DNA of 64,000 bases from an uncultured Candidatus Bathyarchaeia archaeon (GTDB taxonomy: Archaea > Thermoproteota > Bathyarchaeia > 40CM-2-53-6 > DTGE01): positions 1,483 to 65,482 of the forward strand of contig CAZAXO010000001.1 of assembly GCA_964489085.1 (NCBI GenBank). The letters are read 5' to 3'. Shown here one piece after another: positions 22,621 to 61,129 of this stretch. The position numbers were made by a program, and so were the translations under genes. Under the pieces are notes generated by a model. It saw nothing but the letters and a program-made list of their open reading frames with translations, was not told where the DNA came from and made no database searches. Position 1 is the first letter of the stretch. The number at the start of each line of letters is the position of its first letter.

Positions 22621-22635
22621 TTTAATCCCCTTTTT

Positions 22636-24535: not shown

Positions 24536-24660
24536 GATTTTTTATCCCTCTGACTTCTCAATAAATATTAACCAACGTGAATTTTTCCAATTCTTCATTT
24601 ATTCGCATTTTCTTTTTTACAATATAATAATACTCTAAAGAAATTTATATAATCAGACAA

Positions 24661-38914: not shown

Positions 38915-41617
38915 CTATACTAATGCTTGTAACTCTGTATCTTGAAATATATCTAAATATTGTATACCTAATTCTTTTAACGATGTTTCTAATGGAGATA
39001 AAGTCTTTTTTATTAATCTGTCGTAATCTATGGCTTCTATTACATCATCCGGTAGGTAATCTTCGTCATCTAAGGCTACTTTATCTGTTTTGGCATATTT
39101 AGGTGGTATTTTATTTTCGTCTGTATAAATAAAATGTATAATTGAGTTCTTTCCAAGATTACTTAGACCATCCCATAAATAAGCCCACTGATTTGTCCAT
39201 CTTGCTGCGTCAATATGTTCTACTTTTGATAAGACTTTTCTACCTGTTTTTTTATCTATTCTAAAATACTCGTCAAATCTTTTTGTTGCGGTAACTCTAA
39301 TACAGAGATCCTTTATTGGATATTTACCGGATATTATTTTATTAATTTCCTTTCTTATATATGATTTTATTAGTTTTATTATTTCTCTGTCAGATTTATC
39401 TTCATGTATTATAGATTGTACTTTCTTTATTATTTTATTTCCGACTATAGGTATATTACTCTTTATGTGACCGGTAATTTCTATTTCTGGTTCTTTTAAT
39501 ATAATAGATTTATTTAATATAAACTTTACTATAACTCCTTCACTATATTTCTTTTTTGCTCCAGTGTCATCACTACCTTTTATTCTAACCATAAAATAGG
39601 TCGAAGATATGGTTTCTGGTCTAATAAACAACCTATTTATTTTTAGGTTGAATTTATTCGTTACATATGTTTTATAGAAATGGTTTAGTCTCTTTTCTAT
39701 TTTTCTGCTTTCTTTTATCATATCTTCTGCTGACTTACTTTTTAATTGTATTTTTAATGAATCGGTATCTCCATATATTACTTTTATACCCATATGTATT
39801 AGTAATTTCTTTCCATTTATCATCATAAATCTTGCTGTTACTGTGATAGTCTCAGCTATTACTTCGTTAAATAATCTCCAGTTTTCATTTCCGAATATGC
39901 CGTATATAGTATTTGTTAAATATTTTATTACTGTTTGAGTATCATTAGTTAATTGAATTTCAAACTCCAGTTCTATTATTATTGTTTTGTTACCTTTTTC
40001 TTTTTCTTTTTTCACTTTTTCTTCTAGTTTAAATAACTCTTCTTTTATATTATCTCTATATTCTATTAGCTCTAGTAAACAGCTTGCTATTAGTGATGTT
40101 TTGTCCCGTCTGAAGTATGTATTATTTGGTGTGCTTATATAATCATACGGTAAATTTTTTAATTCTTTTTCGGTCAAATCTTTTCCTATGTATGTATCAA
40201 ATCCTATATTGAATGAAATCATTATCATCGGATATAGTGATTTGAAATCAAATGAACATACTTTTCTTGAACGACCGAAAACTGCTGTGTCTACATATCC
40301 TCCTATATATCCTATTTTCTCTCGTTCTCTTGCTGATGGTAATACTATATTTCTATTCTTAGCCTTAACCAATAGTAATTGATCTATTACTTGCAAATTA
40401 GATAATATATTTTCATAGTTGACACCAGTCATACCTCGTATTCCACTAAAGTATTGTTCTTGTCTCAATTTCTCGTAAATTTCATAATCTATAAGGGTAT
40501 CTATAGCATTATAATAAACTAATAATTTTAATTTATTCTTATATGCTGTATTGAATGAACATCCTAATTTTATTTTTCCATATTTTATTACTGCTAGTCC
40601 GGCATTACCTAGACTTCCACTGACTGTTTTTGTTTGTCTACTCAGATATGCATCTCTTGTATCAAATAGTATTTGACCTTTTATTACATATTCGTTAGTA
40701 TAGTTGTTCAAATATACTGCGTTTAGAGGTGAAAGAGAGAAGTAATCTAGTCTTTTAGTTCTTGTTTTTTCATTGGTTATTTGTCTATTTAATACTTTCA
40801 TTCTGTTTATCATGTATGGAATATCGAATTTTTTTATGTTCCATCCCCATATTCCATCTCCGTTCGTATATTTATGGTATTTCAGGAACCCTCTGAACAT
40901 ATCTACTTCTTTATTATATATATGTATTATCCACTTGTATTTTTTACCGTGTGGATTTACTAATGATACGTGTTTTGTTATTTCATCGTTTTTGGATTTT
41001 ACTAATCCTTTTTTAAATACGAAGGTATTTGATGTTTTTGTAAACGAATCTATTACATTTATTACCGTTACTGGTTTTAGTGCTTTATCAACATCTGGTA
41101 TTTTATTTCCTTCTTCTGTTAGGGTTTCAATATCTAAATGTAGTCGTCTTTTATTGATGAAGAAGTTACATGGTTTTATTAACGAGTAATGTATCTTTCT
41201 TTTTCCAATTGGTACAGATATTCCATTTAGTACGTTAGCATCTATTTGAACTCGTATTTTATATGGTATATCATCTTCGTAACATTCTTCTGTTGGAAAG
41301 TAATCTCTTATACCGTGTGTCTTATTTGCTATACCGCTTACATCTGTTGAATTCCGTACGTATATTTTTTTTAATGGTAAACCATCATAGGATCTATATT
41401 TTCGTTTTGTCTTCTTGTTTTGTTTTTCTATTTTTACTATTCTATCATCTGTAGGTGGTGTACCTTCGTTACTAGTATAAAAATATGGTATGTGACCATG
41501 TGTAGTTATCATATGTTTCTTTTTATTTTTGTCTCTACCAAACCAGAATACTAACTCCCCTTTACCTTTTATTGATTTCTTTTCTACTAAATGAATAGAC
41601 AAATCCATACGTTCCAT
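38915..41617 (-). CDS. polB: family-B DNA polymerase
   Basis: Exo I LHLDIET, motif A DFKSLYPMIM, motif B KYLTNTIYGIFG and motif C YGDTDS. Length 900 aa. Confidence 0.9.
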   Translation of the reverse strand: MERMDLSIHLVEKKSIKGKGELVFWFGRDKNKKKHMITTHGHIPYFYTSNEGTPPTDDRIVKIEKQNKKTKRKYRSYDGLPLKKIYVRNSTDVSGIANKTHGIRDYFPTEECYEDDIPYKIRVQIDANVLNGISVPIGKRKIHYSLIKPCNFFINKRRLHLDIETLTEEGNKIPDVDKALKPVTVINVIDSFTKTSNTFVFKKGLVKSKNDEITKHVSLVNPHGKKYKWIIHIYNKEVDMFRGFLKYHKYTNGDGIWGWNIKKFDIPYMINRMKVLNRQITNEKTRTKRLDYFSLSPLNAVYLNNYTNEYVIKGQILFDTRDAYLSRQTKTVSGSLGNAGLAVIKYGKIKLGCSFNTAYKNKLKLLVYYNAIDTLIDYEIYEKLRQEQYFSGIRGMTGVNYENILSNLQVIDQLLLVKAKNRNIVLPSAREREKIGYIGGYVDTAVFGRSRKVCSFDFKSLYPMIMISFNIGFDTYIGKDLTEKELKNLPYDYISTPNNTYFRRDKTSLIASCLLELIEYRDNIKEELFKLEEKVKKEKEKGNKTIIIELEFEIQLTNDTQTVIKYLTNTIYGIFGNENWRLFNEVIAETITVTARFMMINGKKLLIHMGIKVIYGDTDSLKIQLKSKSAEDMIKESRKIEKRLNHFYKTYVTNKFNLKINRLFIRPETISSTYFMVRIKGSDDTGAKKKYSEGVIVKFILNKSIILKEPEIEITGHIKSNIPIVGNKIIKKVQSIIHEDKSDREIIKLIKSYIRKEINKIISGKYPIKDLCIRVTATKRFDEYFRIDKKTGRKVLSKVEHIDAARWTNQWAYLWDGLSNLGKNSIIHFIYTDENKIPPKYAKTDKVALDDEDYLPDDVIEAIDYDRLIKKTLSPLETSLKELGIQYLDIFQDTELQALV

Positions 41618-45353: not shown

Positions 45354-45571
45354 ATTTGGATATTCTTTCCTAACTTCTTCCTCAAGCTCTTCTGCTCGTT
45401 CGAATAGGTCTTTTTCGTTTACTGTTTTTTTTTTAGCCCAAACTTTTATTATCTCATATTTTTCGGTTTTTTCTTTTACTATGTTTAACCACCTTTTGTA
45501 TTTTCTTATTATCGGTTTTTAATTAAATTTTTTTATAAATTTTAAAAATTTTTTTTATATTTAAATTTTGA

Positions 45572-45608
45572 ATTATAACTTAATAATCAACTATTATTAA
45601 GTTATAAT
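45572..45608. promoter_or_regulatory. 37-bp palindrome in divergent intergenic region
   Basis: ATTATAACTTAATAAT-caact-ATTATTAAGTTATAAT. The 16-bp arms are perfect inverted repeats, and the palindrome lies at the minus/plus strand-switch point. Confidence 0.5.
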
Positions 45609-45686
45609 AAAAGTTTTAAATTTTATAATTTTTTTATATAATTTATTATTAAATTAACTTTCCAAATTGACATAGGTGGGATACAT

Positions 45687-46499
45687 TTGATTTATGTAGT
45701 TAATTACGACATGGATGAAGAAGATATAAGCAAAATCTCGGATTTTAAGTATAATAATATATTTATAAACTGTCTAGACCATAGTACAAAGGGTATAGAA
45801 AATGTACTCATTAATACATTTGCTGAGCCAAACAGAAATTTCTTTTCAGGTAAAATATGTAGGTATATAATTAGAAACGTATATTTTGCTAATAATAAGT
45901 CTATAGATATAGTTTTCCGAAATGTTGGTAGGATTATATATCTTATTAATATTAGTTATGAACAGGAGAAGTACATATATTCTAAACACAAAAATAAATA
46001 TAGGTATTATAAGTGTTCATTTAAAAGGAGGGATGATTCGTTTACACTTATGGTTAAACGGGTTATGTTTTGGAATGATATGAACAAATTGAGTTTATTG
46101 GAAGGACAAAGTTATGATATAGGTTATTTATTGAAATTAATTAGTTATAACCTACCGGAGTCTGTGTTATCTGAAACGGACTTTCTTAATAATCTTGAGC
46201 TTATAATGGATTTAGGTAAGTATGTTAATATGATAAATAAAGAGAATATATTTGTATCTTTACTATTGAATTTTGTTACACCTTCTTATATAACTAAATT
46301 TAGATATCCTCCTAAACATAGAAAAGGAAAAAAGAAGAAGGAGGAATCTGAGTTAAAAACTAAATATGGTGGCAATATAGAGGATATGGCTCGTGATAAA
46401 ATGATTGAATATTTTAAATATAGAGACTCTGATTTTGGAAATATTAATACATCGAAAAAAGCCAAAAAAAATAACGATAATACAATGAGTTTGATATAA
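45687..46499 (+). CDS. hypothetical protein
   Basis: 270-aa ORF, the first gene of the plus-strand block. Confidence 0.4.
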   Translation: MIYVVNYDMDEEDISKISDFKYNNIFINCLDHSTKGIENVLINTFAEPNRNFFSGKICRYIIRNVYFANNKSIDIVFRNVGRIIYLINISYEQEKYIYSKHKNKYRYYKCSFKRRDDSFTLMVKRVMFWNDMNKLSLLEGQSYDIGYLLKLISYNLPESVLSETDFLNNLELIMDLGKYVNMINKENIFVSLLLNFVTPSYITKFRYPPKHRKGKKKKEESELKTKYGGNIEDMARDKMIEYFKYRDSDFGNINTSKKAKKNNDNTMSLI

Positions 46500-47099
46500 A
46501 TGAATTTTGAGGATATAACTGATATTAAATTTAAGAAGATAGATAAGGATACTATAGAGTTTACTAAAAAGACCTCATTATGGTGTACCTTACCATATGA
46601 TAACCATAGTAAAGGGTGTCCTAACTACGGTAAAAAAAATACATGTCCACCAGATGCTCCGTATTTGGAACATGAAGTAAAGTCATACGAACATATATAT
46701 TTACTTTATTTACGCTTTGATTTTGAGATGTATAGAGTAATAAGGGGCAATGAATGGATTAATAAGGGATTTCCTTATACAGAAAAGCAATTGCGTTGTC
46801 TTTTATATTATCAACCCTCAATAAAGAGGATAATTAAAAATCATATAATTAATAAATTATTTACTCTGGGAAGTATTTATGTTCTTGGATGTGGTTCTGG
46901 GTTGAGGCTTCCTTTTCAAAAGATTGTGTATTCTATGGAAGCTGTTGGTATAAATGTATTTAAAACGTTAAAAAATAATAATATTTATCATGAAATCAAA
47001 CCTGTTAATACTACATTGTTTGTTAATTTAATATGTTCGAGTGATATTGTATTTGAGAGGAAAGAGAAGAAAGAGATAAAAATAATGGAGTTGATATGA
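46500..47099 (+). CDS. hypothetical protein (CPNYGKKNTCPP motif)
   Basis: 199-aa ORF immediately adjacent to its neighbours. Confidence 0.35.
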   Translation: MNFEDITDIKFKKIDKDTIEFTKKTSLWCTLPYDNHSKGCPNYGKKNTCPPDAPYLEHEVKSYEHIYLLYLRFDFEMYRVIRGNEWINKGFPYTEKQLRCLLYYQPSIKRIIKNHIINKLFTLGSIYVLGCGSGLRLPFQKIVYSMEAVGINVFKTLKNNNIYHEIKPVNTTLFVNLICSSDIVFERKEKKEIKIMELI

Positions 47100-48059
47100 T
47101 TGGATGAAGTTAACGTTTTGTTAATGGAAAAATATAGGAGTAGTGATTTTTCTGATGGTGCGTTATTGGGTCAAGATAGGATATTGAGGTCGTGTAGAAA
47201 TTTTGTTAAGAAGGGTGAAATACCACATCTTATATTATCTGGACCTGCCGGTACCGGAAAAACAACTACTGCTTTGGCTTTGGCTTTACGTATTAGTGGA
47301 CCTGCTAATACTAAAATACTTAATGCGAGTGATGAAAATAGTATTAAGGTTATACGAGGACCAGTTAAAGAATTTATTATGGCTGATTCTGATTTGTCGG
47401 ATATATTAAAGACTCTGATATTGGATGAAAGTGATAATATGTCATCTAAGGCTCAACAGGGACTTCGTAGAATGATAGAAGAACATAGTGATTCTTTTAG
47501 GCTTATTATGACGTGTAATTATATAAACCAGATTATAGATCCCATTGTATCTAGGTGTGTAAATTTGGTATATAGACCTATTCCTAAGATTTTAGTTGTT
47601 AACAGATTAAAAAAGGTTGCTAAAGCTGAATCTATTAAAATTACTAAGAAACAACTTAATATAGTTGCTACTGTGTTTAGGGGTGATATGCGTAAGTGTT
47701 ATAATATTTTAGATTCTATTCGTCTTGGTGCTGATTTTGGTGCATTAATAAATGAAATAAGTCCCGTTACTTATTTTAAGTTAATATTATCTAACAATAT
47801 AGTCGGTATTAAGGATTATATTGATAAAAATATATTTAGTAAGTATGATATGAAATATTTGATTGATTTGTGTATAGATTTGATTGTTAGATTAATTAAA
47901 TCTGATAAAGTTAACGATAAAAGTAAATTTAGTTTGTCTAATGCTAAACATTTGGTTGGTCTTTTGACCGAGGCAGATTATAGGTTGTCTATTGGTTCTG
48001 AATATTCTGCTGTAGCCTTCTGGATAGCTGTAAAGTATAATAATTTGGTGTTATTATAA
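47100..48059 (+). CDS. rfc: replication factor C small-subunit-like clamp loader (AAA+)
   Basis: Walker A LSGPAGTGKTTTALALA, Walker B ILDESDNM, and the RFC-specific SRC motif (IDPIVSRC). Confidence 0.75.
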   Translation: MDEVNVLLMEKYRSSDFSDGALLGQDRILRSCRNFVKKGEIPHLILSGPAGTGKTTTALALALRISGPANTKILNASDENSIKVIRGPVKEFIMADSDLSDILKTLILDESDNMSSKAQQGLRRMIEEHSDSFRLIMTCNYINQIIDPIVSRCVNLVYRPIPKILVVNRLKKVAKAESIKITKKQLNIVATVFRGDMRKCYNILDSIRLGADFGALINEISPVTYFKLILSNNIVGIKDYIDKNIFSKYDMKYLIDLCIDLIVRLIKSDKVNDKSKFSLSNAKHLVGLLTEADYRLSIGSEYSAVAFWIAVKYNNLVLL

Positions 48060-48341
48060 GTGATTACATTTCTAGTTAAGGAAGCTCGTAGTCATTTGGA
48101 GGAATACGGTATTGTATACACTTTACGAGAGTTTTCAAATCGTCGTGTTGGTAAATGTAAATATAATTATTTTCCAAATGATAGGAGTAGAGGGTCTGTA
48201 TTTATTGTTTTTATTGGGAATTTTTTTGATAAGGAATGTGAATTAGTACCATACGTTAAAGATTCCGGTTTTAATTCTTTGAATGAGTGGTTAGAGAAGG
48301 CAGGTAAAGCCAGAATGTTATACTCGGTAAGTTTATTATAG
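48060..48341 (+). CDS. hypothetical protein
   Basis: 93-aa ORF. Confidence 0.3.
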   Translation: MITFLVKEARSHLEEYGIVYTLREFSNRRVGKCKYNYFPNDRSRGSVFIVFIGNFFDKECELVPYVKDSGFNSLNEWLEKAGKARMLYSVSLL

Positions 48342-50216
48342 GTGATCGTTATAGATCTTTGGCAGAAGTTATTACCCATTAGAGAGAAAGCCTACAGTTC
48401 AGATAAAAAAATCATATTGGATAATTACATACAGGGATCTGGTAAATCTCTATCTCAAACCGGTATAATGATAAAGAACAATAAAAATAACTTAGCCTTT
48501 TTTAATGACCACGAACTAATTCACGAAATGTGGAGTTCAATTTACAGTACCAGAGGTATTGGAGGTTGGATTAAGAACTACCCTTTTATCAACCTTATGT
48601 TTGGTAAGACTTACGTACTTAAGGAATACGAACGTAAAACCTACGGCAAGAAATTTAGTTGTTTCTGCAATCAGTACGGTAACGATTTAATCTTTAATTT
48701 GATAAGGATGGGATTTATACCTAGTAATTATTGTAATGATATATGTGTGTATGGTAACGAGTGTTCACATAAAGCTCAGATACGAGAGAACTTCAACATG
48801 GCTAAACTGGATTTTGATAGTCTATGGTTGTTGGTTAAATCCTATATATTTACAGATATAATGGATGGTATATTTGATAAGTTTAAAGATTTGAATATAT
48901 TGATGGATGAAAACTTCTTTAACGTTTTGTTTGACCAGATAGATTTGAGGGCATTTACTATATCATTTTATAAGAAGGCTATTTCAGATGTGTTAAATAT
49001 AAATTCTGAACTTGAGGAAATATGGGTAGATTTTGTACCACTACTTGATAGGATGATAAATAGTTTGGTTGGTGCTAAAAGCATAAAGACAGAAAAGAAG
49101 ATCAAGTTAATAATTAGAGATATATACGAATTTTTAGGTTCTTATTCTGTTTCAGATTTATCGGGTTGGAACGAAATTATGAAGCACACCTTTCTCCAAA
49201 ACAATGGTACTATAACTCCTAAGATAGGAAATATTATGAATAGTTTTATAGATATACTAAATGATATTTCATTATGTGAAACACCTGAGTCTGTCAATAA
49301 TAGAATTTTAGTCGATGACGAAGAACATATATTTACATACATAATAAATAAAAAAAAATTAACTGAAGATCTAATTGAAAAATCCTCCAAATTTATAATT
49401 GCATCATCTATAATGGATGGTAAAATATTCGAAGCATTATTTCCAAATTATTCTGACGATTATACCATACTGCATGGTGGAATACAACCTAAATTTAAAA
49501 AAGTGTATAGATATACGAAGGGTGTGTATCCAAAATATGTATTATATAATTATAAAACGAATCAATATACTAAATCGTTCTGCAATCTACTTAAAATTAC
49601 TGGTGAAATATTACAGAGACATAAAAATGATAAATTGATGTTAGTGAGCTTTAAGGAGTTTATAAGAGTTATCCATAAAGGGTTAAAATCCGTTATACGT
49701 AAATATGGTATAGATTTAGTATATGCATATTGGTACAATATAGAAGGTAAAAACATTTATAAAGATAGAACGGTACAAATACAATTTGGATGTCCAGGAA
49801 GACCAAGTAGATATTCTACTGCGATTTCTACTATTTTAGATTTAGATAAAGACCTGATCGATTATATATCGGTACAAGGTGCACAATTTCAAACATCCGA
49901 GAGACTTAGAAGTATCTTATATCCAAATGTTAAAACAGTTTACCAATTATCGAAGATAATAAATGACAAATATCCTGAATATATAGATTTTAATAATATT
50001 GCTGAGATAAAGCATAAGGGTCTTATTTCCTTTATGAGGAAATACGGGGTTTGTAGTGCTGATGAAATAAGGGTAAAATATTATGAAAGTAGGATTTCTA
50101 AAAAGCAGGTTACCAATGTACTCGATAACTTATTTAGAGAAGAGTTATTAGGTAAGGTTAAGATTAAAAGGGAAGTAGGACCAGGAAGACCAACTTGGTA
50201 TTGGAAGGCTAATTAA
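48342..50216 (+). CDS. large P-loop NTPase (Walker A QGSGKS) of unknown role; packaging ATPase or replication ATPase are candidates
   Basis: 624 aa with YIQGSGKSLSQTG near the N-terminus and Cys clusters (FSCFCNQYG, CNDICVYGNEC). Confidence 0.35.
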   Translation: MIVIDLWQKLLPIREKAYSSDKKIILDNYIQGSGKSLSQTGIMIKNNKNNLAFFNDHELIHEMWSSIYSTRGIGGWIKNYPFINLMFGKTYVLKEYERKTYGKKFSCFCNQYGNDLIFNLIRMGFIPSNYCNDICVYGNECSHKAQIRENFNMAKLDFDSLWLLVKSYIFTDIMDGIFDKFKDLNILMDENFFNVLFDQIDLRAFTISFYKKAISDVLNINSELEEIWVDFVPLLDRMINSLVGAKSIKTEKKIKLIIRDIYEFLGSYSVSDLSGWNEIMKHTFLQNNGTITPKIGNIMNSFIDILNDISLCETPESVNNRILVDDEEHIFTYIINKKKLTEDLIEKSSKFIIASSIMDGKIFEALFPNYSDDYTILHGGIQPKFKKVYRYTKGVYPKYVLYNYKTNQYTKSFCNLLKITGEILQRHKNDKLMLVSFKEFIRVIHKGLKSVIRKYGIDLVYAYWYNIEGKNIYKDRTVQIQFGCPGRPSRYSTAISTILDLDKDLIDYISVQGAQFQTSERLRSILYPNVKTVYQLSKIINDKYPEYIDFNNIAEIKHKGLISFMRKYGVCSADEIRVKYYESRISKKQVTNVLDNLFREELLGKVKIKREVGPGRPTWYWKAN

Positions 50217-50370: not shown

Positions 50371-50859
50371 TTAGACATATGTAATTTGTTCTATTTTCTT
50401 TATTTTCTTTTTATTATATGGAACGTTGTTATCATCGAAGATTTTTATTATTTCGTGTTTATATATTTGTTCCCAGTTACTGTTTACTCCCTTATAATTT
50501 ATTTTTCTTACATATGTGAGTATTTGTTTTAATGCTGGTGTCCTAGGTATTTGGTTTCTATATTTTTTTGTTATATTTAGTAGTTCTTCGATAGTATATT
50601 CTACGTATATTCTCTTTATTACTTTTCGTTCCTTTACTTTCGATAATTCTACCTTTGTTCTTCTTGTCCTTTTTTTCTCTCCAGCCCAGTATAACCAGTA
50701 ACAAAACGTTCCGGTGACTCTTCCTCGTATTACCGCGTCTTTTCCAGTTTCCTCTTTATATCTTATCATATCCGGTGCTAAGATATCAGTCCACGGTTGA
50801 TCTTTCCAAAATTTTACTTCTTTAGTTACTCCTTTATAAGTTATAGTTCTAGTTTCCAT
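50371..50859 (-). CDS. protein of the WRGxxTGTF paralog family
   Basis: Contains VIRGRVTGTFCYWLYW. Third paralog. Confidence 0.4.
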   Translation of the reverse strand: METRTITYKGVTKEVKFWKDQPWTDILAPDMIRYKEETGKDAVIRGRVTGTFCYWLYWAGEKKRTRRTKVELSKVKERKVIKRIYVEYTIEELLNITKKYRNQIPRTPALKQILTYVRKINYKGVNSNWEQIYKHEIIKIFDDNNVPYNKKKIKKIEQITYV

Positions 50860-51435: not shown

Positions 51436-52161
51436 CTACCCACTGGAAAAAGTAGAACCACTTTCCATATATGCGATTATATCTCCGTAAAGTAGTTTAT
51501 CTTTGTGATTCTTTATCATGGATAATATTTTTTCTTTATTACTTAGTTGTAAACTACCGTATAATACCATATGAGTTTCATAAAACATTACGATATAACT
51601 AGCTCTCCCTAAATTTTCTATTAGTTCAAAACATCTTTCTATATCTCCCATAAACCTTTTATGAAACTCAAAACTTATTAATTCTATTGGTTGTGATAAC
51701 CCCTCTAAAATATCAGGTTCTGAACCTTCGGCATCAATTTTACAGAATTTAGGTTTACCATATTTATTTATTAGCCAGTCTAGTGTCACTGTTTTTATTC
51801 CTTCTCTATACCAAGTGAAATCTTCTAGTGATTCATCTGGTTTTTTCTTGTATTTGTCTTTTAGTGTGGATAGTTCCGGCTTTTCTTTGCAAGTGTTTAT
51901 CGTCATAATATCGATCTCAGAGTATGCACCCATATCTAAAAGATGTATGTTGTTATTATTTTTGAATCTATGACTTAAATGAATAAAGAGATTGTACAGT
52001 GGTTCCAACGCTATTACAGTTGCACCTAGTTGGAGGAATATGTCTGATTTATCTCCTACGTTAGCACCTATATCGAATACCAAATCTCCCTTTTTTATGT
52101 ATGTAGAGTAAAACTTAGTTTCTATTTTTTTATCTGTTTCATTTTCGGTTTGGTAATCCAT
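51436..52161 (-). CDS. FkbM-family SAM-dependent methyltransferase
   Basis: VFDIGANVGDKSDIFLQLGATVIALEP matches the FkbM signature. Confidence 0.55.
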   Translation of the reverse strand: MDYQTENETDKKIETKFYSTYIKKGDLVFDIGANVGDKSDIFLQLGATVIALEPLYNLFIHLSHRFKNNNNIHLLDMGAYSEIDIMTINTCKEKPELSTLKDKYKKKPDESLEDFTWYREGIKTVTLDWLINKYGKPKFCKIDAEGSEPDILEGLSQPIELISFEFHKRFMGDIERCFELIENLGRASYIVMFYETHMVLYGSLQLSNKEKILSMIKNHKDKLLYGDIIAYMESGSTFSSG

Positions 52162-52207
52162 TTTTTTGACCTCCGTTTATGATAAACAAAAAAAAAATAG
52201 GGTATTA

Positions 52208-52408
52208 TTATAAGTCTCGTGGAAAGATCGTCTTTCTTTTATTACCTTCTGCTCTGTCACAGGCTTTTAATACCAGTTCTTCTATATACTCATCAATTTT
52301 ACCAAATAATTCCTTTGATAACTTGAGATTCTTTCCACTTCCTTTTACTATTTCGTACACTCTACTTTTTACAACAGTGTGTTTTTCTTTTTTGGTTTTT
52401 TCAGACAT
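52208..52408 (-). CDS. histone-fold protein (archaeal-histone-like singlet)
   Basis: 66 aa. RVYEIVKGSGKNLKLSKELFGKIDEYIEELVLKACDRAEGNKRKTIFPRDL aligns with HMf-type histones (IIKDAG...ARHAGRKTIKAEDI). Confidence 0.5.
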   Translation of the reverse strand: MSEKTKKEKHTVVKSRVYEIVKGSGKNLKLSKELFGKIDEYIEELVLKACDRAEGNKRKTIFPRDL

Positions 52409-52527
52409 AATTTTAATCCTCCAACTATAATATTTATATTATTAATATAATAATTTGGATAATTTATAAAATTTTTTGTAAAACATCTTGTCAAAATAGT
52501 AAAAGAAAGAGAAAAAAAAATTAGATA

Positions 52528-53362: not shown

Positions 53363-53650
53363 TTAGTAATGATCTATCATGCAGTTAAATGCTTTTTCTA
53401 CTTCATTCCAAAAAATTTTTCTAATATTGTCTGCTTTTGAGTGTTTGAAGTAAGTTAATCCAGTTTCCGGACATGAAGGTCCTTTATTCATATGTACACT
53501 GTCTAAGAATATCTCTATTATATTGCTTGGTATTGGTAAAGACCGCCTAAGAGCATTGTAAGACTTTACGATTATCTTTTTAACGGTTGGTTCTAAATCT
53601 TGTTCAATTTCGAAATCTTTTATTATTGTATTAGCCATCCTTTCAGCCAT
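53363..53650 (-). CDS. small protein, LPIPxNIIE paralog family (member 1)
   Basis: RRSLPIPSNIIEIF...IRKIFWNEV. Confidence 0.4.
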   Translation of the reverse strand: MAERMANTIIKDFEIEQDLEPTVKKIIVKSYNALRRSLPIPSNIIEIFLDSVHMNKGPSCPETGLTYFKHSKADNIRKIFWNEVEKAFNCMIDHY

Positions 53651-53665
53651 TTTCTCACCTCCTAT

Positions 53666-54010
53666 TTATAATAATCTGAGTATATGTTCCCAAAATTTTC
53701 TTATTATTACATCAGCAGTTTGAAAATCAGTTGTTTTTGCTATAATCCCATCTATTTTACCACATTTTTTATGATACGTCTTATAATCTCTGTCGTCTGG
53801 AATACCGACTTTATTTAATGAGTTAGACATGTTACTCATTTGTTTTATTATGTATTTTTCAATTACATTTGTTGGTATTGGTAATGGTTTTCTAAGGTAC
53901 TTATAGGTTCTATGTACGAAGCTTTTTATCCTATTTGTTCCTATCGACCGCATAAAATCCTTACTAAATAAATTTATAGATTTCTCTCTTATTTGTTTTT
54001 CAGTTACCAT
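53666..54010 (-). CDS. small protein, LPIPxNIIE paralog family (member 2)
   Basis: RKPLPIPTNVIEKY...IRKFWEHI. Confidence 0.4.
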   Translation of the reverse strand: MVTEKQIREKSINLFSKDFMRSIGTNRIKSFVHRTYKYLRKPLPIPTNVIEKYIIKQMSNMSNSLNKVGIPDDRDYKTYHKKCGKIDGIIAKTTDFQTADVIIRKFWEHILRLL

Positions 54011-54031
54011 TTTCTTACCTCCTATTCATCG

Positions 54032-54538
54032 TTAGACCTTATATTTTGGATTATCTCTACCTCCACTATAAGGCATAAATAGGTATTTTCTTTTTATTTC
54101 CATCTCTTCAGGATTGCATTTGTAATTAACTTTATATCCTTGTTTTATAAACTTCACAGGGGAACCAAATAATAATCCACCAGATTCAAACTGATAATGG
54201 GTAGGATCAATCCAATACAACCTATTATTTATTACAACTTCTACCCAGTAATGGTCATCTAACCACCCAAATTCACCGTGGATCACCTTGGTTTTTATTT
54301 TCATACCCTTAAAATACAATGATAGATTATACGACGCAACAGGACAATAACCTAAATCTGACTTCCACCAGTTTTTCTCAAACGTCTTAGTTTTTTCAGA
54401 ATACGTTAAAGATATTTTCTTAATAGTCAGTAATAATCCTTTGTAATCTCTAGTGTGGTACGATTTTTTGTGAGATGGAACGATTATTTTCTTTCCATCT
54501 TTAGTGTAAGAAAAAGATTTTAATTCTTTAGTTTTCAT
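54032..54538 (-). CDS. hypothetical protein
   Basis: 168-aa ORF. Confidence 0.35.
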   Translation of the reverse strand: MKTKELKSFSYTKDGKKIIVPSHKKSYHTRDYKGLLLTIKKISLTYSEKTKTFEKNWWKSDLGYCPVASYNLSLYFKGMKIKTKVIHGEFGWLDDHYWVEVVINNRLYWIDPTHYQFESGGLLFGSPVKFIKQGYKVNYKCNPEEMEIKRKYLFMPYSGGRDNPKYKV

Positions 54539-54729
54539 TTTGTTATATCATCTATGATATCTTGAATAAAGTCTATTCGTTTATTTATTTTTTTGCTGAT
54601 TTCTTCCATATGTCCTTCGAAATCTATCTCATCTAGGGTTTTATCTAACTGACTTTCGAAGTCGTCTAGTTTTCGTTTTACCGTTTTGTGTCTAATTACG
54701 TTTTGTTCTTCGGTTCTCTTTTTTGTCAT
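54535..54729 (-). CDS. hypothetical small protein
   Basis: 64-aa ORF with a 4-nt overlap. Confidence 0.3.
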   Translation of the reverse strand: MTKKRTEEQNVIRHKTVKRKLDDFESQLDKTLDEIDFEGHMEEISKKINKRIDFIQDIIDDITK

Positions 54730-54730
54730 T

Positions 54731-55033
54731 TTATCCTATCCTTTCTCCGTTTAACGCATCCTTTATATAACCCCAGAAGGTTTTACGTATCTGATCTGCC
54801 GAATTTTTGTATTCTTCAGACAAATAATATTCCCCGTTGGGTTCTTCACGGCTGATCCATGTTTCAATGTAGGTTTCTATTATTTTTGGTGGTATAGGCA
54901 TTATTCTCGAAAGTGATTTACCTATTTTGTTAATCGAAGCTATAAAATGAGGTTTTGAATCCGGAAACTCATCTATGTACTCAGAAATAGAATATTTATC
55001 CAATATTTTCTCTATATACTTTTTACTTACCAT
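54731..55033 (-). CDS. small protein, LPIPxNIIE paralog family (member 3)
   Basis: SRIMPIPPKIIETY...IRKTFWGYI. Confidence 0.4.
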   Translation of the reverse strand: MVSKKYIEKILDKYSISEYIDEFPDSKPHFIASINKIGKSLSRIMPIPPKIIETYIETWISREEPNGEYYLSEEYKNSADQIRKTFWGYIKDALNGERIG

Positions 55034-55055
55034 TTTTTTACCTCTTATTATGTTT

Positions 55056-55259
55056 TTATAGGAAAGTTTCCAAAAATTTTGATATTAAGTCTCGTTTATT
55101 CTGAGCATGTGATGAGTTGGTTGTTAATCTTCTTCCATTAGCGTATATAGTATATTCGTATAAATATGTATCTTTTCCATACTGTTGCGATTTCTCTTTT
55201 GTAATATTCCTGAGTTCATATTTTACAGGGATTACAATATCATTTATTTTCGTTGTCAC
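55056..55259 (-). CDS. small protein, LKNI/DLYIN paralog family
   Basis: VIPVKYELRNITKE...YEYTIYANG. Confidence 0.35.
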   Translation of the reverse strand: MTTKINDIVIPVKYELRNITKEKSQQYGKDTYLYEYTIYANGRRLTTNSSHAQNKRDLISKFLETFL

Positions 55260-55272
55260 CTTATTACCTCTG

Positions 55273-55680
55273 TCATTTTCTTAAATAAATTGAATAGCGG
55301 GCTATACCTCCGGTTGATTTTAGTTGTCTTACCGTTACGTTGTTGTATCTTATATATATTAAGTCTTTTAGGGTTTCTCTGAAATTTTTGTATTGTCCAG
55401 TTTTAACTTTTAGTTGTGTTTTTGTTTTTGTTCTATTTGTGAAGTTTTTTTCTTCCAATTTTGCTGGTTGTATTGAGACTAAAAATAGTATTACTTCTTT
55501 TATTGTTTTCGCTTTCCTTTTCTTTGTGTCGATACCTATTACGTCGGATGTACTTGGATCTTTGAACCAAGATGCTGGTATATTGTCTGAATAGTGTTTT
55601 ATTTTGGATGTATGACTTTCGTCGGCTATTCTAGATTTTTTGGATCTTTTTAGATGAAACTTTTGTGCTTTTTTAAACAT
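55273..55680 (-). CDS. hypothetical basic protein
   Basis: 135-aa ORF. Confidence 0.3.
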   Translation of the reverse strand: MFKKAQKFHLKRSKKSRIADESHTSKIKHYSDNIPASWFKDPSTSDVIGIDTKKRKAKTIKEVILFLVSIQPAKLEEKNFTNRTKTKTQLKVKTGQYKNFRETLKDLIYIRYNNVTVRQLKSTGGIARYSIYLRK

Positions 55681-55683
55681 TTT

Positions 55684-55944
55684 TTATAACAACTTATTTT
55701 TTATTGATTCTTTTAATTCTTTTAAATTATTTGCTTGGTAACCAGTAGACCCTCTATAAGAGTAGTTTTCTATCCTTTGTTCTCTGTTGGAGGGTAGGTA
55801 ATATATATCTATTTTGTAATAGAATCCTTCTAAATTTTTTAGTTTATATCTGGTAACGTAAATAAGATCTTCTTTTCTATCTCCGAGGTATATTTCTTTA
55901 AGATCTTGTTTACTTACTACCAAATCTTCAAAATCTTCTGGCAT
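55684..55944 (-). CDS. hypothetical protein
   Basis: 86-aa ORF. Confidence 0.3.
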   Translation of the reverse strand: MPEDFEDLVVSKQDLKEIYLGDRKEDLIYVTRYKLKNLEGFYYKIDIYYLPSNREQRIENYSYRGSTGYQANNLKELKESIKNKLL

Positions 55945-55951
55945 GATATTT

Positions 55952-56188
55952 TTAATATCCCATTGAGTTTTCTAATAGTTCTACCGCGTGATTTATCACG
56001 TCTGTTTTTGTATTTCCAGTATACATAACTATATCTTTTCTGGCAGAATTCACTTTTCCATTTATATATAAATCGTAAGCATAAGCAGATGAACCATCTT
56101 CATATATCGCTTTTCTTATGTTTTTTAGCTCTATACTTACTGTAAATTTTATATCCTTAAGCATTAATCGTTTTTCTTCTTTCGACAT
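55952..56188 (-). CDS. small protein, LKNI/DLYIN paralog family
   Basis: FTVSIELKNIRK...YAYDLYINGK. Confidence 0.4.
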   Translation of the reverse strand: MSKEEKRLMLKDIKFTVSIELKNIRKAIYEDGSSAYAYDLYINGKVNSARKDIVMYTGNTKTDVINHAVELLENSMGY

Positions 56189-56599
56189 TTAAAAATCATC
56201 TAATCTTATATTTTGTACTATTTTTTCGAATAATTGACTTAAACTTTCGACCGGTAATGAACGACAGTCTTTTTGTCTCAACTCATCATTTATATAAAGG
56301 TCGAACTTGTAGTAAAATACGTGGAGGTTTATATCTTTGATTCTCATATTTGTAACTTTTTTGATATTCTTCAGTTGGATTTTTATCGTAAATTGCTTGG
56401 GTTTTATGTCTATTGTTCTTAAGTCGTCTCTATATTTCGTTTCTTTATATTTTGATTCTATAGATGTATTGGCTTCACTTTTTATTTCATTACGAGTGTA
56501 TCCACCTCTGTAGGTTCCTCCTCTCGATCTAACAGATGCTCCTTTTTTTTGTGCAGCAGTCCTATATGGTTGATCTCTTCTTACCATTTTTTTTTTCAC
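56189..56599 (-). CDS. protein with basic N-terminus, LKNI/DLYIN paralog family
   Basis: FTIKIQLKNIKK...YKFDLYINDEL. Confidence 0.4.
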   Translation of the reverse strand: MKKKMVRRDQPYRTAAQKKGASVRSRGGTYRGGYTRNEIKSEANTSIESKYKETKYRDDLRTIDIKPKQFTIKIQLKNIKKVTNMRIKDINLHVFYYKFDLYINDELRQKDCRSLPVESLSQLFEKIVQNIRLDDF

Positions 56600-56600
56600 T

Positions 56601-56846
56601 TTACATTCTTAATTCTTTTACTACCTTGATAAACAATTCATTTATATCTTTCACATTATATACGTATCTATCTTCTGATGCAAGAACATCGTTGATGTAT
56701 AAATCGAACGAATAGGTTGGTTTTTCTTTTCTATCTTTATCTATACGTTTTATAATGTTTTTTAATTGAACTTTTACTGTGAATTGTTTAGGTTTTAACT
56801 TTATTCTTTTAATGTTGGTTCTATATTTCATTTCTTTTTTTGACAT
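56601..56846 (-). CDS. small protein, LKNI/DLYIN paralog family
   Basis: FTVKVQLKNIIK...YSFDLYINDVL. Confidence 0.4.
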   Translation of the reverse strand: MSKKEMKYRTNIKRIKLKPKQFTVKVQLKNIIKRIDKDRKEKPTYSFDLYINDVLASEDRYVYNVKDINELFIKVVKELRM

Positions 56847-57181
56847 TATTTAACAACTTTTATTATTTTTTGTTTGATAACATTATTTATTCCTGAACTG
56901 AATTTTAATTTTACGTTTTTATATGGATATCTTGATTTTTTGAATTTTATGGGTGTTATTTCTATTTTGTATTGAGTTCTTTTGAAATTCCATTTGTTGC
57001 ATATCCAATCGAAGCCGTATTTGTATCCGTATTGGTCATTTATATTTCCAAATCCTTTATATATGGTAAGTCTATTGTCGTTATCGTCGACTTTGGGTTT
57101 AATAATGGTTTTACTTATTTTTACGTCGTCTTCCTTAACTATATCCCATTTGGTAAGGGTGTGTACTTTATTTTTATACAT
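56846..57181 (-). CDS. small protein, paralog of 57438..57710
   Basis: Shares KWNFKRTQYKIEI with RWNYSNPQYGIKI in 57438..57710. Confidence 0.35.
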   Translation of the reverse strand: MYKNKVHTLTKWDIVKEDDVKISKTIIKPKVDDNDNRLTIYKGFGNINDQYGYKYGFDWICNKWNFKRTQYKIEITPIKFKKSRYPYKNVKLKFSSGINNVIKQKIIKVVK

Positions 57182-57183
57182 AT

Positions 57184-57435
57184 TTAATACCTTATAATAC
57201 GTTGTATATATTTTAATACGTTTTTGTAGAGTTCATCTATGGAGTTTGCATTTATCTCTCGTATGTTACTGTTGGTTCTGATATTATTTATGTATATATT
57301 GTGTATGTATGTTGTCTTTCCTCTATTTGTAATTACGTTTTCTTTATTATATTCACACTTAGTAATTTCTTTTATTCCTACTTTTACGGTAAACGATTTA
57401 TCCTTTATTTTTGTAGTTTTGATTAGTTCCGTCAT
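57184..57435 (-). CDS. small protein, LKNI/DLYIN paralog family
   Basis: FTVKVGIKEITK...YIHNIYINNI. Confidence 0.35.
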   Translation of the reverse strand: MTELIKTTKIKDKSFTVKVGIKEITKCEYNKENVITNRGKTTYIHNIYINNIRTNSNIREINANSIDELYKNVLKYIQRIIRY

Positions 57436-57437
57436 TT

Positions 57438-57710
57438 CTATCCGATTTTTTCTATTAGTTTCTTCCTTACGATCTTTAAGATACCACTACTGACTTTTAT
57501 TCCTTTTATTTTTATACCGTATTGTGGGTTACTATAGTTCCATCTAGTACAAGTTATATTTCCTATATGACTATGTCCAAGTCTGTCTGTTATTTTCAGT
57601 TTGGCAGTATAGTCAGTTGTATTTGCACCAATAAAGAGTTGGTATTCTTTAACATCTGTTACTTGAATTTGATCTTCGGATACTATATCTTCCTTTGCTA
57701 TATAAATCAT
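57438..57710 (-). CDS. small protein, paralog of 56846..57181
   Basis: 90-aa ORF. Confidence 0.35.
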   Translation of the reverse strand: MIYIAKEDIVSEDQIQVTDVKEYQLFIGANTTDYTAKLKITDRLGHSHIGNITCTRWNYSNPQYGIKIKGIKVSSGILKIVRKKLIEKIG

Positions 57711-57732
57711 AATTTTTTATTTAGTCTATAAT

Positions 57733-58059
57733 TTAGTTTATAAATAAATGATATATATTCTTATTTCCTTTCTTAGATTTTAAAACTTTTTCTCTTCCTA
57801 CTTTGGAGCCGGTTCTACATGAATATACTTTTATTACATTGTTTAAATGTTTTTTATTATAGAGAGATCCACAATAAATTCCATATTTAGAATATTTTTT
57901 TTTTGTTCCAACGCCATATATGAAATATTCGTTATCATACTCGTCTGCTTGTAAGATGATTTCTTTTTTGAGTTCCTTTAACGATATTTTTTTTTGTCGT
58001 TTGAGTATCTTTTGTCTATCTTCTTCTTTATTTTTTATTACCTCTTTTATGGTTCCCAA
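57733..58059 (-). CDS. hypothetical basic protein
   Basis: 108-aa Lys-rich ORF. Confidence 0.3.
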   Translation of the reverse strand: MGTIKEVIKNKEEDRQKILKRQKKISLKELKKEIILQADEYDNEYFIYGVGTKKKYSKYGIYCGSLYNKKHLNNVIKVYSCRTGSKVGREKVLKSKKGNKNIYHLFIN

Positions 58060-58271
58060 GTTCCATCATCGGATAGGTTACTTATATTGTCAGCTCTATT
58101 GCAGAGATGCTCTAATAGATTGTTAATTCTTTTATTTAGTTTAATTATTTGTTCAACGATATTTTTATCTCGTTTATATTTAAATACTTTCTTAAGTATT
58201 CTAAATGAACTATTTAAATCCACGCTTTGTGTTGTTGCTCTTATTATAAACTTCTGAGCACTTCTTACCAT
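58047..58271 (-). CDS. small protein, paralog of 33575..33796
   Basis: FKYKRDKNIV...DDGTWEP. Confidence 0.35.
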   Translation of the reverse strand: MVRSAQKFIIRATTQSVDLNSSFRILKKVFKYKRDKNIVEQIIKLNKRINNLLEHLCNRADNISNLSDDGTWEP

Positions 58272-58370
58272 AGTGAAATATTCTCCATTGGTTAATTACT
58301 TTTTTGTAGGAATTCTATTATATTAATAATACTGGGGATTATATATAAAACTTTTTGATTTCCTGTTCTG

Positions 58371-58494
58371 AGAATTCCAATGTACTCCCCCTACCTTCCC
58401 TTTTTTTAGGGTAGTATTACTCCGGTTGTATACGTAAATGTAGAGTGTCAGCGACCAGAGTCAGTACCCGTCAGTAAATGTACATTGGAATTCT
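58371..58494. repeat. 15-bp perfect inverted repeat (AGAATTCCAATGTAC / GTACATTGGAATTCT) flanking a 94-bp GC-richer core
   Basis: Arms at 58371..58385 and 58480..58494. The core contains the CCCTA..TAGGG hairpin and three GTCAG repeats. It lies in a 545-bp ORF-free region. Confidence 0.5.
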
Positions 58495-58816
58495 TGAGAT
58501 TATCTATTTTTTTATAAATATGAACACACATTAATCTTATAGCGTGATTGTCATATCGATCGTGAAACTACTTCTCAAATTATTACTATATAATTTTGCG
58601 GGAAAAAATTATAATGTTATAATTTTCTGTATGTATATATATTATAGTAATATATTACATTATTGATATTATTATGATAGAAATAGTTGGGGTATGTACT
58701 GTCATCTATATAACGGTGGTATATAGACTATAATCCTATAATTATAAGGTTATAATTTATGGTTACAATAAAAAAAATATAATTGAGAATAAATAAGTTA
58801 TATCTTTAGTAGAAAA

Positions 58817-59122
58817 TTATTCTAATCTCCAATCTCCGGTAAACTCTACGTTATCTTCGATAAAATCAGGACATTCAAAATAATATTTATGTTCTTCGTT
58901 GGTTAATATCCATATTTTTTCTTCTACTTTAAATAGAAATTTTGGAAATCTTGTTACTCTTGGATTTTTTAGTGTTGATATGAGTTTTCTTTTATTTTTT
59001 ATACGTTTTATGTTATAATTTTCTAATACTAGTTTTCCACCGTATCCATACTCTTTTGCTTTTAGAATTAATAATTCCTTTAACTCTTCCTCTAATTTTG
59101 TTAATTGAGACATTTTATTCAC
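58817..59122 (-). CDS. small protein of the C-terminal (F/Y)TGDW family
   Basis: Ends in VEFTGDWRLE. Confidence 0.35.
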   Translation of the reverse strand: MNKMSQLTKLEEELKELLILKAKEYGYGGKLVLENYNIKRIKNKRKLISTLKNPRVTRFPKFLFKVEEKIWILTNEEHKYYFECPDFIEDNVEFTGDWRLE

Positions 59123-59858: not shown

Positions 59859-60140
59859 TTACCTTTTATAGATTCTCCATTTACCTGTGAAATATAGGTG
59901 ATCTTCTATTTTTTCTTCTTGTACTATCGATGTCAGTCCGACCGGAGATAATATTTGAAATGTAGAAGGATATAACGCGTATATAAAGACAACTCGTTTA
60001 CTTTTTCTCCATTTATCTTCTAGAAATTCAAGTAACTTCTTTTTATCCTTTAGTTTCTTGAAATCTTCGTTAGATAATGGACAACCGTGTCTATCTTCCA
60101 ATAATCCCTTTATTCTTTCATCTAAACTAGATAAACTCAT
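59859..60140 (-). CDS. small protein of the C-terminal (F/Y)TGDW family
   Basis: Ends in LYFTGKWRIYKR. Confidence 0.3.
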   Translation of the reverse strand: MSLSSLDERIKGLLEDRHGCPLSNEDFKKLKDKKKLLEFLEDKWRKSKRVVFIYALYPSTFQILSPVGLTSIVQEEKIEDHLYFTGKWRIYKR

Positions 60141-61129
60141 ATTAACACCGATTGTATTTTATATTTTTTCTTTTTGAAATATTTATGATCAAAATATTCA
60201 ACACCGTTAATTATTTTTATTCCGATTTTACATAAATACATTATTTTCTTTAATAATTTTCCATTTATAAACTCTATTTTTTCAAATATACCACTTTCTA
60301 TAAAGAAATCTATTTCTCCTTTTGTAAACTTACCATTTGTAACAATATATCCTTTGTTAATTTTGAGTTCATTCATCAATATTTTAAATCCAAATTCGTT
60401 TATATTCCCATTTGGTACTGTATTTTCTGGGTTACCTTTGTGTTTTGCTTCTACCAAGAATGTCAAAGTTTCACTAACACCTTTTATTTTGAATATTCCA
60501 TCTGCGTTTAGTCCTGTACCTGCTGGTTTTATATAAACTATATCACAGTTTTTTAAGATAGTCCAAGATCCACGTAATGCAGTAAGAGATAGATGTTCAA
60601 ACTCTGTTGAACTCATATTTAATATATATGGATCTACAAATATAGAATAATCTTGTTCAGATTTCAATTTACTATTACCCTTCTGTATTCTGTAACTCTT
60701 AGTCAGGTCTATTATTGTAGTATTAAGAATAATATCTCCATATTTTTGTCTGTATGGATCATCCTTAGGGTATTTATGTAAGTTAAATCGTCTATATTTT
60801 TCAAATTCCCTTTTTAATGTATTATTATATAACATACGTCCTTTATTAAATACCATAAAATCTCTTAAAAGTGGAGTTATTTTATATGTCGACTCAGCTA
60901 TCCTTATGGCAAACCCAAAAGGTATAAGATAGTCTTCGAATGATTTCCTTGTTCTATATTCATACCTTGGTTTTATATCTCCACCATTTAATATCTTTTG
61001 CTCTTCTTTTGTTATATCAAATCTCTTTATAATTGCCTTTAATAATTTATCTTTATGAAAACTTTTATTTTCATATTTATATAATGATTTACAAAAAAAT
61101 AAGGTTATATCTAATATTCTTGGTATCAT
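60137..61129 (-). CDS. putative PD-(D/E)xK nuclease-fold protein
   Basis: NADGIF...LTFLVEAKHKG resembles the D...(E/D)xK restriction-endonuclease-like core. Length 330 aa. Confidence 0.3.
   Translation of the reverse strand: MIPRILDITLFFCKSLYKYENKSFHKDKLLKAIIKRFDITKEEQKILNGGDIKPRYEYRTRKSFEDYLIPFGFAIRIAESTYKITPLLRDFMVFNKGRMLYNNTLKREFEKYRRFNLHKYPKDDPYRQKYGDIILNTTIIDLTKSYRIQKGNSKLKSEQDYSIFVDPYILNMSSTEFEHLSLTALRGSWTILKNCDIVYIKPAGTGLNADGIFKIKGVSETLTFLVEAKHKGNPENTVPNGNINEFGFKILMNELKINKGYIVTNGKFTKGEIDFFIESGIFEKIEFINGKLLKKIMYLCKIGIKIINGVEYFDHKYFKKKKYKIQSVLI

Follow-up and report, generated by a model that had tools for sequence, protein, structure and literature searches.

A probable face-to-face histone encoded on a virus-like archaeal mobile element

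Does a 66-codon open reading frame (ORF) lying in a dense array of ORFans encode a histone and, if so, of which type and for what use? The ORF is localised on the minus strand (52208..52408, ATG...TAA, stop included, according to the ORF list and its translation) of a 64,000-nucleotide stretch of contig CAZAXO010000001.1, referred to here as the window, and its product is MSEKTKKEKHTVVKSRVYEIVKGSGKNLKLSKELFGKIDEYIEELVLKACDRAEGNKRKTIFPRDL. A preliminary description of this DNA had placed the ORF exactly and had read it as a singlet histone of the HMfB type, encoded by a virus or another mobile element. Our analysis confirmed that observation in part and supported its interpretation in part, the proposed subtype being wrong. 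The product is very likely a histone-fold protein of the face-to-face (FtF), alpha3-truncated type, and the best explanation overall, which we hold to be likely, is that it is the FtF histone of an archaeal virus-like mobile element, where it would form tetramers and wrap DNA.

Fold and family of the 66-residue product

When the single ORF sequence was compared with solved structures by phmmer, the top match was HTkC of Thermococcus kodakarensis (9f2c_A, E=2e-5), aligned without gaps (query 12-64 to HTkC 5-57), and the next were the Bd0055 structures 8fvx and 8cmp (E=9e-4). When 1.84 billion representative proteins were searched exhaustively with HMMER, 27 relatives passed E<1e-3; a word-indexed protein homology search with the single sequence returned only the self-match. 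The relatives were singlets of 56-78 amino acids, longer proteins extended at the N-terminus and tandem doublets of 119-130 amino acids, and nearly all of them carried the ending ...RA..N.RKT....D[LVIF] at the C-terminus or at most three residues from it. Some have the names of bacterial metagenome-assembled genomes (MAGs). A profile search brought in 35 more database proteins of the same architecture, a few of which were labelled 'DUF1931' or 'histone H3/H4'. Against solved histones, the family profile scored highest with HLp (9qt0, E=8.1e-19) and HTkC (9f2c, E=2.5e-16), followed by Bd0055 (E=1.3e-12), HmvA (E=1.5e-6) and NF-YB (E about 7e-4); the values for HMfA (E=0.035) and HMfB (E=0.13) were not significant and the coverage was of the C-terminal half only.

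Curated families were less informative. Pfam scores stayed below the gathering thresholds for Histone (19.3 against 26.4 bits), CBFD_NFYB_HMF (PF00808, 16.0 against 21.4 bits) and DUF1931 (PF09123, 14.7 against 21.8 bits), and these matches were confined to residues 36-66. The CBFD_NFYB_HMF match by which the preliminary description proposed to check the fold was seen, at a sub-threshold score. PHROGs and NCBIfam gave no match for the ORF. At E<0.01, just seven of 34 relatives were matched by DUF1931 and eight by CBFD_NFYB_HMF; the curated libraries (Pfam, NCBIfam) thus miss the family, and such genes are routinely annotated as hypothetical. The ORF is short, it reaches no curated family threshold and an 83-amino-acid ORF overlaps it on the opposite strand, all of which would suit a reading frame that arose by chance in AT-rich DNA and happens to resemble a histone motif. 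This candidate was refuted by the set of homologues: the 27 relatives found in so large a collection, five invariant residues, conservation over the full length and on related elements, a confidently predicted fold and a ribosome-binding site leave a chance ORF with a negligible probability.

The AlphaFold2 monomer model, built from a 34-sequence alignment with a pLDDT score (predicted local distance difference test) of 84, contained helices at residues 14-23, 32-55 and 63-65, that is, the helix-loop-long helix-loop-helix architecture of the histone fold. Foldseek comparison with the PDB placed HTkC (9f2c) first, with template modelling (TM) scores of 0.80/0.91 and a root-mean-square deviation of 1.1 Å, and then HBb (TM 0.72-0.75 for its structures) and HLp; nucleosomal histones reached just 0.5-0.6, and all the significant or near-significant matches were histone-fold chains. 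The model, the PDB matches and the profile values for HLp and HTkC together bear out the earlier claim of a histone-fold singlet.

Along the chain, no secondary structure was present ahead of residue 14, and residues 1-5 had a pLDDT below 50. The N-terminal tail MSEKTKKEKHT (codons 1-11, 52376..52408, minus strand, as are all the segments below) is predicted to be disordered from the model and holds four lysines and two glutamates by charge count; a basic N-terminal extension had been reported here, and a short lysine-containing tail is indeed present, although it is just mildly basic. Helix alpha1 (codons 14-23, 52340..52369; DSSP and phmmer alignment) starts with K14-S15-R16, equivalent to the DNA-contacting K7-S8-K9 of HTkC. 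In loop L1 (codons 24-31, 52316..52339), K29 stands in the place of the minor-groove arginine (R22 of HTkC, R19 of HMfB) and S31 is conserved. Helix alpha2 (codons 32-55, 52244..52315; model and alignment) has 24 residues, four fewer than in HMfB, and includes R52 (codon 52253-52255), which is invariant in the family and equivalent to R45, the tetramerisation arginine of HTkC. The remaining codons 56-66 (52211..52243) specify N56, the L2 residues R58-K59-T60, an alpha3 stub of one turn that contains D65, and L66 as the C-terminus.

Five of these residues, R52, N56, R58, T60 and D65, were invariant in two family alignments. R58, T60 and D65 (RxTxxxxD: the L2 threonine and the Arg-Asp clamp) align with R52, T54 and D59 of HMfB, and the L2/alpha3 signature noticed in the preliminary description is therefore present. 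The R52/N56 columns hold R/N in HLp, R/E in HTkC, S/D in Bd0055 and L/A in HMfB. In the FtF category, the strongest conservation lies at hidden Markov model (HMM) positions 48/52/54/56/61, occupied by R/N/R/T/D (Schwab et al. 2024, PMC11390915), and the spacing of the five residues is identical to that of these positions. The motif R-x3-N-x-R-x-T-x4-D was found in 53 of 54 collected proteins, and the C-terminus lay exactly one residue past the aspartate in 50 of the 54 as well as in 75 of 80 metagenome loci, as it does here with D65-L66. In the FtF interface the terminal carboxylate pairs with the interface arginine, which fits a C-terminus of one residue past the aspartate. In alpha3-truncated histones, alpha3 is cut from about 10 residues to 3-4 and alpha2 is shorter than that of nucleosomal histones by 4-5 residues (Schwab et al. 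2024, PMC11390915); both features are found in the ORF product, in whose model alpha3 is a three-residue helix (63-65) and the chain ends at 66, and the basic alpha1 residues of FtF histones are also present (K14, R16 and K22).

The preliminary description had favoured a nucleosomal histone of the HMfB type, which would polymerise into hypernucleosomes. HMfB and HMfA (PDB 1A7W, 1B67) do share with the ORF the histone fold, the L2 RKTxxxxD motif including the clamp aspartate, and a basic residue in L1 where HMfB has R19, and the weak Pfam Histone and CBFD_NFYB_HMF matches point in the same direction. On MAFFT alignment, AEGNKRKTIFPRDL matched ARHAGRKTIKAEDI of HMfB column for column and IVKGSGKN corresponded to IIKDAGAE with one gap, both as described earlier. 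Among the DNA-binding residues of HMfB for which counterparts had been expected, R19 and K53 have basic ones (K29 and K59), whereas R10 aligns with E19. However, the similarity does not extend along the full length, as had been claimed: the five-way alignment showed a four-column gap in alpha2, and the last nine residues of HMfB, which belong to alpha3, had no counterpart. In HMfB, alpha3 is complete with 10 residues, alpha2 is longer and open-ended hypernucleosomes are formed, whereas FtF tetramers use up both dimer-dimer faces, so that no extension is left to them (HTkC work, bioRxiv 10.64898/2025.12.06.692711; PMC11390915). With alpha3 reduced to a stub, alpha2 short, the FtF signature in place, profile values of 0.035-0.13 for HMfA and HMfB and the low TM scores of nucleosomal histones, membership of the HMfB type was rejected and a polymerising histone is very improbable.

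A second alternative is a 'dimer' histone like Bd0055/HBb (PDB 8FVX, 8CMP, 9EZZ), also truncated in alpha3, which would stay dimeric and bend or coat DNA without wrapping it as a tetramer. This protein, a dimer that bends DNA, is a singlet of the same length as the ORF product; it has the same truncated alpha3, the RKTxxxxD motif and a monomer that folds very similarly, and its structures took a close second rank by phmmer, by family profile and by fold. Nevertheless, the bacterial dimers are by definition devoid of the conserved R48 and N52 of the FtF interface, and Bd0055 has S/D in the columns where the ORF has R52/N56. The dimer class has been described from bacteria only, whereas the present element and the nearest cellular relatives of its histone are archaeal, and the family profile scores the FtF structures above Bd0055. 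We rejected Bd0055-type membership on the presence of R52 and N56 and on the archaeal setting, and consider the dimeric reading unlikely.

The FtF assignment is best seen against the two solved members of that kind. HTkC (PDB 9F2C) was the best match in both sequence and fold; it belongs to the same length class, has a short alpha2 and a stub alpha3, and its tetramerisation arginine and most of its DNA-contact residues are conserved in the ORF at about 33% identity. It differs in being chromosomal and tail-less and in having His for the clamp Asp and Glu at the N56 position, whereas the ORF has the canonical N and D, an 11-residue tail and a location on a mobile element. HLp of Leptospira perolatii (PDB 9QT0-2), the top match of the family profile, has R49/N53/R55 in the places of R52/N56/R58, an R-D clamp and an N-terminal tail, and has been shown experimentally to be a stable tetramer (Nat Commun 2025, PMC12701072). 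It is, in contrast, bacterial and chromosomal, and its identity to the ORF is 28-30%.

Virus- and element-borne histones had been called rare in the preliminary description, a view that is now dated. More than 1,500 viral histones have been reported from IMG/VR, among them 'viral face-to-face histones' (VFFH) of Caudoviricetes, whose N-terminal tails are lysine-rich and 5-40 amino acids long, as well as Bd0055-like and other alpha3-type viral histones (Liu et al., 2024 preprint, bioRxiv 10.1101/2024.12.06.627149). Among prokaryotic histone groups, FtF histones rank second in size, and those of Halobacteria are found on plasmids too (Schwab et al. 2024, PMC11390915). Compared by description, VFFH is the category that the ORF fits best, with its FtF-type fold and lysine-containing tail (11-13 residues, four lysines), although VFFH genes lie on tailed-virus genomes and the present element, archaeal in look, has no recognised tailed-virus genes. 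The FtF genes of haloarchaeal plasmids and megaplasmids are likewise on archaeal extrachromosomal replicons; their proteins are acidic, the replicons are large and of high GC content, and the similarity to the ORF is marginal, since 59 haloarchaeal plasmid records, with DUF1931 labels, matched weakly (38-45% identity over ~70% of the query, E 3e-3 to 0.4).

The 'phage histones' of Schwab et al., which are the VTTH of Liu et al., also have an alpha3-type fold and occur in prokaryotic viruses. They possess a C-terminal tetramerisation helix and no RxTxxxD motif, the ORF being the reverse on both counts, and membership was rejected because the motif is present and there is no sequence past residue 66. 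The best fold matches in BFVD were longer viral proteins with an alpha3-type fold, which may be of this phage-histone kind. No confirmed relative of the histone was found by scanning IMG/VR with the histone alignment, and tblastn against 50,697 phage and archaeal-virus genomes gave nothing at E<=1.

The N-terminal tails of the relatives are variable and often lysine-rich. Some close relatives (P0004, P0009 and P0011; L005 2193-2516) bear long N-terminal extensions with an acidic stretch and lysine/proline repeats, for example KPKPKPKAKPKAKPKPKPKPKAKK, which resemble linker-histone or HU-tail repeats.

Proposed assembly, DNA binding and role

On the model of its homologues HTkC and HLp, two copies of the ORF product would pair as a handshake homodimer, and two such dimers would join face to face in a flat, toroidal homotetramer. 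R52 would reach across to the opposing dimer and form a salt bridge with its C-terminal carboxylate (L66), and N56 would be hydrogen-bonded to R58. Because alpha3 is missing and the face-to-face signature is present, a closed toroidal tetramer is expected as the DNA-binding architecture in place of an extendable superhelix. In HTkC, R45 is salt-bridged to the opposing dimer's C-terminal carboxylate, and the substitution R45A converts the tetramer into a dimer (bioRxiv 10.64898/2025.12.06.692711; PMC11390915); in HLp, R49/N53/R55 build the tetramer interface and ~60 bp of DNA are wrapped (PMC12701072).

About 60 bp of DNA would be wrapped around the ring without sequence specificity, by backbone and minor-groove contacts from K14-S15-R16 and K22 in alpha1, K29/L30 in L1 and R58-K59-T60/F62 in L2, and the lysine-containing tail would contribute charge. 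The DNA contacts of HTkC are K7, S8, K9, K11, R22, V23, R51, K52, T53 and Y55 (bioRxiv 10.64898/2025.12.06.692711; PMC11390915); their counterparts are, in the same order, K14, S15, R16, Y18, K29, L30, R58, K59, T60 and F62, eight of the ten being identical or conservative. By analogy with these solved histones, we regard the tetramer and its wrapping of DNA as probable.

The tandem doublets among the relatives (P0003, P0005, P0012, P0014, P0019, P0022, P0023 and P0026; 119-130 amino acids, of FtF-like fold) have the R..N.RKT....D motif at the end of each half and look like natural pseudodimers of the family. At the level of sequence, they are consistent with handshake dimerisation.

Several points weigh against an FtF histone that forms tetramers on a viral genome. 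The product falls short of the curated thresholds of Pfam and NCBIfam; one DNA contact of HTkC is lost (K11 to Y18); two interface positions of HLp differ, S52 and T61 being G55 and R64 in the ORF; HTkC has a glutamate at the N56 position, which indicates that N56 is not strictly required; and the net charge of the tail is just +2. The tetramer is predicted here from the conservation of interface residues, and the target may be either the DNA of the element or that of its host. Finally, about 50 window ORFs (compared with PHROGs, Pfam or NCBIfam, the libraries used varying between ORFs; one ORF by tblastn) yielded no recognisable capsid, portal, terminase or integrase gene, and the label used here is therefore virus-like mobile element.

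The role is the least certain part of the proposal. The product may be a small, probably independently transcribed chromatin protein that compacts or coats the element's own, probably 7-deazaguanine-modified, DNA in replication or packaging, or that remodels the chromatin of the host. In a different reading of the same fold, it would be a takeover factor that co-assembles with host histones in mixed dimers or tetramers, or coats host DNA, and so disturbs host chromatin and transcription. The histone gene does lie within a block of small ORFans, a kind that often acts early in infection; FtF histones are abundant in archaea, including the Asgard lineages, and could be its partners; and the tails of the relatives are highly variable, as might be expected under host-virus conflict. 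On the other side, the residues for DNA contact and for the tetramer show the same conservation as those of cellular FtF histones, a pattern that suits ordinary DNA binding, and we think a takeover factor quite unlikely.

The ORF adds one example to the FtF histones known on plasmids and in viral metagenomes and leaves the picture of histone diversity unchanged. Its value is that of a well-supported FtF histone of a mobile element in an archaeal setting, conserved across at least three related elements. Particular to it are an archaeal, possibly Asgard-associated element, the co-occurrence of a DNA hypermodification pathway, and the fact that no close relative was found in IMG/VR or among deposited virus genomes. 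If the element were an Asgard virus, this tractable 66-residue protein could be used to find out if archaeal viruses employ histones of their own to package or organise DNA, and to test whether FtF histones tolerate hypermodified DNA. A bolder version, in which an uncultivated archaeal virus lineage, possibly of Asgard archaea (Promethearchaeota/Loki), keeps its own FtF histone to chromatinise a 7-deazaguanine-modified genome, appears unlikely to us; if true, it would mean that an archaeal virus encodes its own chromatin, much as giant eukaryotic viruses have their histones.

The histone gene and its flanking signals

A Shine-Dalgarno-like GGAGG was read from the sequence 9 nt before the histone ATG (52418..52422, minus strand, as are the other signals described here), and its CCTCC context is repeated ahead of neighbouring genes (repeat family D10). 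The GC content of the ORF is 31%, compared with 30% for the window. The ribosome-binding site, a GC content equal to that of the window and the homologues on related elements argue for a real, resident gene. It is the only one of its kind here, since the family HMM detected no second histone-fold gene in the window.

The 119-nt intergenic gap before the gene is the third largest among 28 same-strand gaps of the called gene list. It contains a candidate archaeal promoter ~60 nt before the ATG, formed by A6 (52472-52477) followed by TTTATAAA (52463-52470), the whole spanning 52463..52477. A T9 run (52512..52520) just past the stop of the upstream gene and a T10 run (52188..52197) 10 nt past the histone stop are candidate oligo-T terminators; the two runs are alike (repeat D6). 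Boxes such as these promoter and terminator candidates arise easily by chance in DNA of 30% GC. The scan showed no enrichment of sigma-70 promoter-like sites, and no terminator of the hairpin type was detected.

The T10 run is followed by the GGAGG of an FkbM-type methyltransferase gene (Methyltransf_21, 51436-52161, minus strand), which starts 46 nt downstream of the histone gene with this ribosome-binding site of its own. The adjacency of the two genes is not kept on the related locus L003.

The carrying element and its relatives

The window has a GC content of 30% and consists of a dense, mostly co-directional array of ORFans. No tRNA was found in it and Rfam gave no match, and these features together suggest that it belongs to a virus-like mobile element and not to a cellular chromosome, in agreement with the preliminary description. 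Megablast with 20 kb of window sequence against deposited phages gave no match, and IMG/VR scans with the DNA polymerase and with a conserved 352-amino-acid ORF found no close relative of the element.

Other elements do carry the histone. Its closest relatives, P0002 (55% identity) and P0004 (49%), are both on short AT-rich contigs of small co-directional ORFans. On the metagenomic loci L003 and L004, homologues of the ORFs at 55273-55680 and 50371-50859 flank the histone gene in the same order as in the window, and L005 has weaker homologues of the window's neighbouring genes, so that the histone gene is conserved, and its gene order partly so, on at least two related metagenomic elements. 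Another locus, L086, which was found through FEN-1, has at least eight collinear genes in common with the window; the histone was not found within the 18.6 kb examined.

The more distant relatives of the histone are cellular and archaeal. One is in a Bathyarchaeota MAG, where its neighbours, read from their translations alone, are presumably TBP, ribosomal protein S3Ae and acetyl-CoA synthetase; another archaeal-chromosome relative adjoins rpS2, RpoN, aIF5B, TiaS and CDC48.

The element, of ~70 kb, has a large archaeal-type set of replication and repair genes: a family-B DNA polymerase (38915-41617), a Hel308-like helicase with an HhH domain (16773-18884), an RFC small-subunit-like clamp loader (47100-48059), FEN-1 (31649-32599), an ERCC4/XPF-like nuclease (15967-16776), a UDG-family protein (14455-15054) and a PD-(D/E)XK nuclease (37806-38912). 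The nearest relatives of the polymerase in the phage database were haloarchaeal tailed viruses, at 23-25% identity. The FEN-1 and RFC-like proteins scored far better with PDB entries 1b43, 1mc8, 1rxv and 1a76, and 2chq and 1iqp, respectively, which we take to be archaeal enzymes, than with eukaryotic, T4 or bacterial ones, and the Hel308-like helicase was likewise best with entries that we assume to be archaeal. Among named proteins, the best relatives of FEN-1 were from Promethearchaeota/Lokiarchaeota MAGs (222-240 bits), with Thermococcus at about 195 bits. This affinity of FEN-1 and the low GC content give a lead, on weak evidence, to an Asgard host.

A complete 7-deazaguanine (preQ0) pathway lies at 18959-26493 on the minus strand, which suggests that the element hypermodifies its DNA. 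It comprises GTP cyclohydrolase I, FolE (24661-25230), QueE-like (25227-26054), QueD-like (26035-26493) and QueC-like (20169-21002) genes and a weak TGT/DpdA-like gene (18959-19843); a GT2 glycosyltransferase gene (21646-22620) and that of another radical SAM protein (22636-23952), also on the minus strand, are interspersed in the region.

On L086 (2018-5132), the family-B polymerase is encoded by two adjacent ORFs (617 and 316 amino acids), both matching the window's single 900-amino-acid polymerase; a split gene, the remnant of an intein or a frameshift in the assembly could each account for this. Several families of small paralogous ORFs, in which no function was recognised, lie upstream of the histone gene on the minus strand (53363-59122); among them are 53363-53650/53666-54010/54731-55033 and 55955-56188/56189-56599/56604-56849/57187-57486. 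The ORFs at 26857-27225 and 50371-50859 have in common an N-terminal domain of ~60 residues (53% identity), which is also found on L003 (1939-2433) beside the histone homologue. The genes at 6698-8248, 10022-10942, 60137-61129 and 197-1965 include those for a GHKL-type ATPase (HATPase_c_3), a pentapeptide-repeat protein and a protein with an Mrr-like restriction nuclease domain; PKD-domain and sialidase-like CBM proteins belong to the same group and might be surface or adhesion components. The sole break in the minus-strand array is a plus-strand block at 45687-50216, composed of a 270-amino-acid ORF, DUF2284, the RFC-like protein and a 624-amino-acid ORFan. The GC skew follows this strand switch, and an origin or divergent promoters could be located in the divergent gap (45354-45686).

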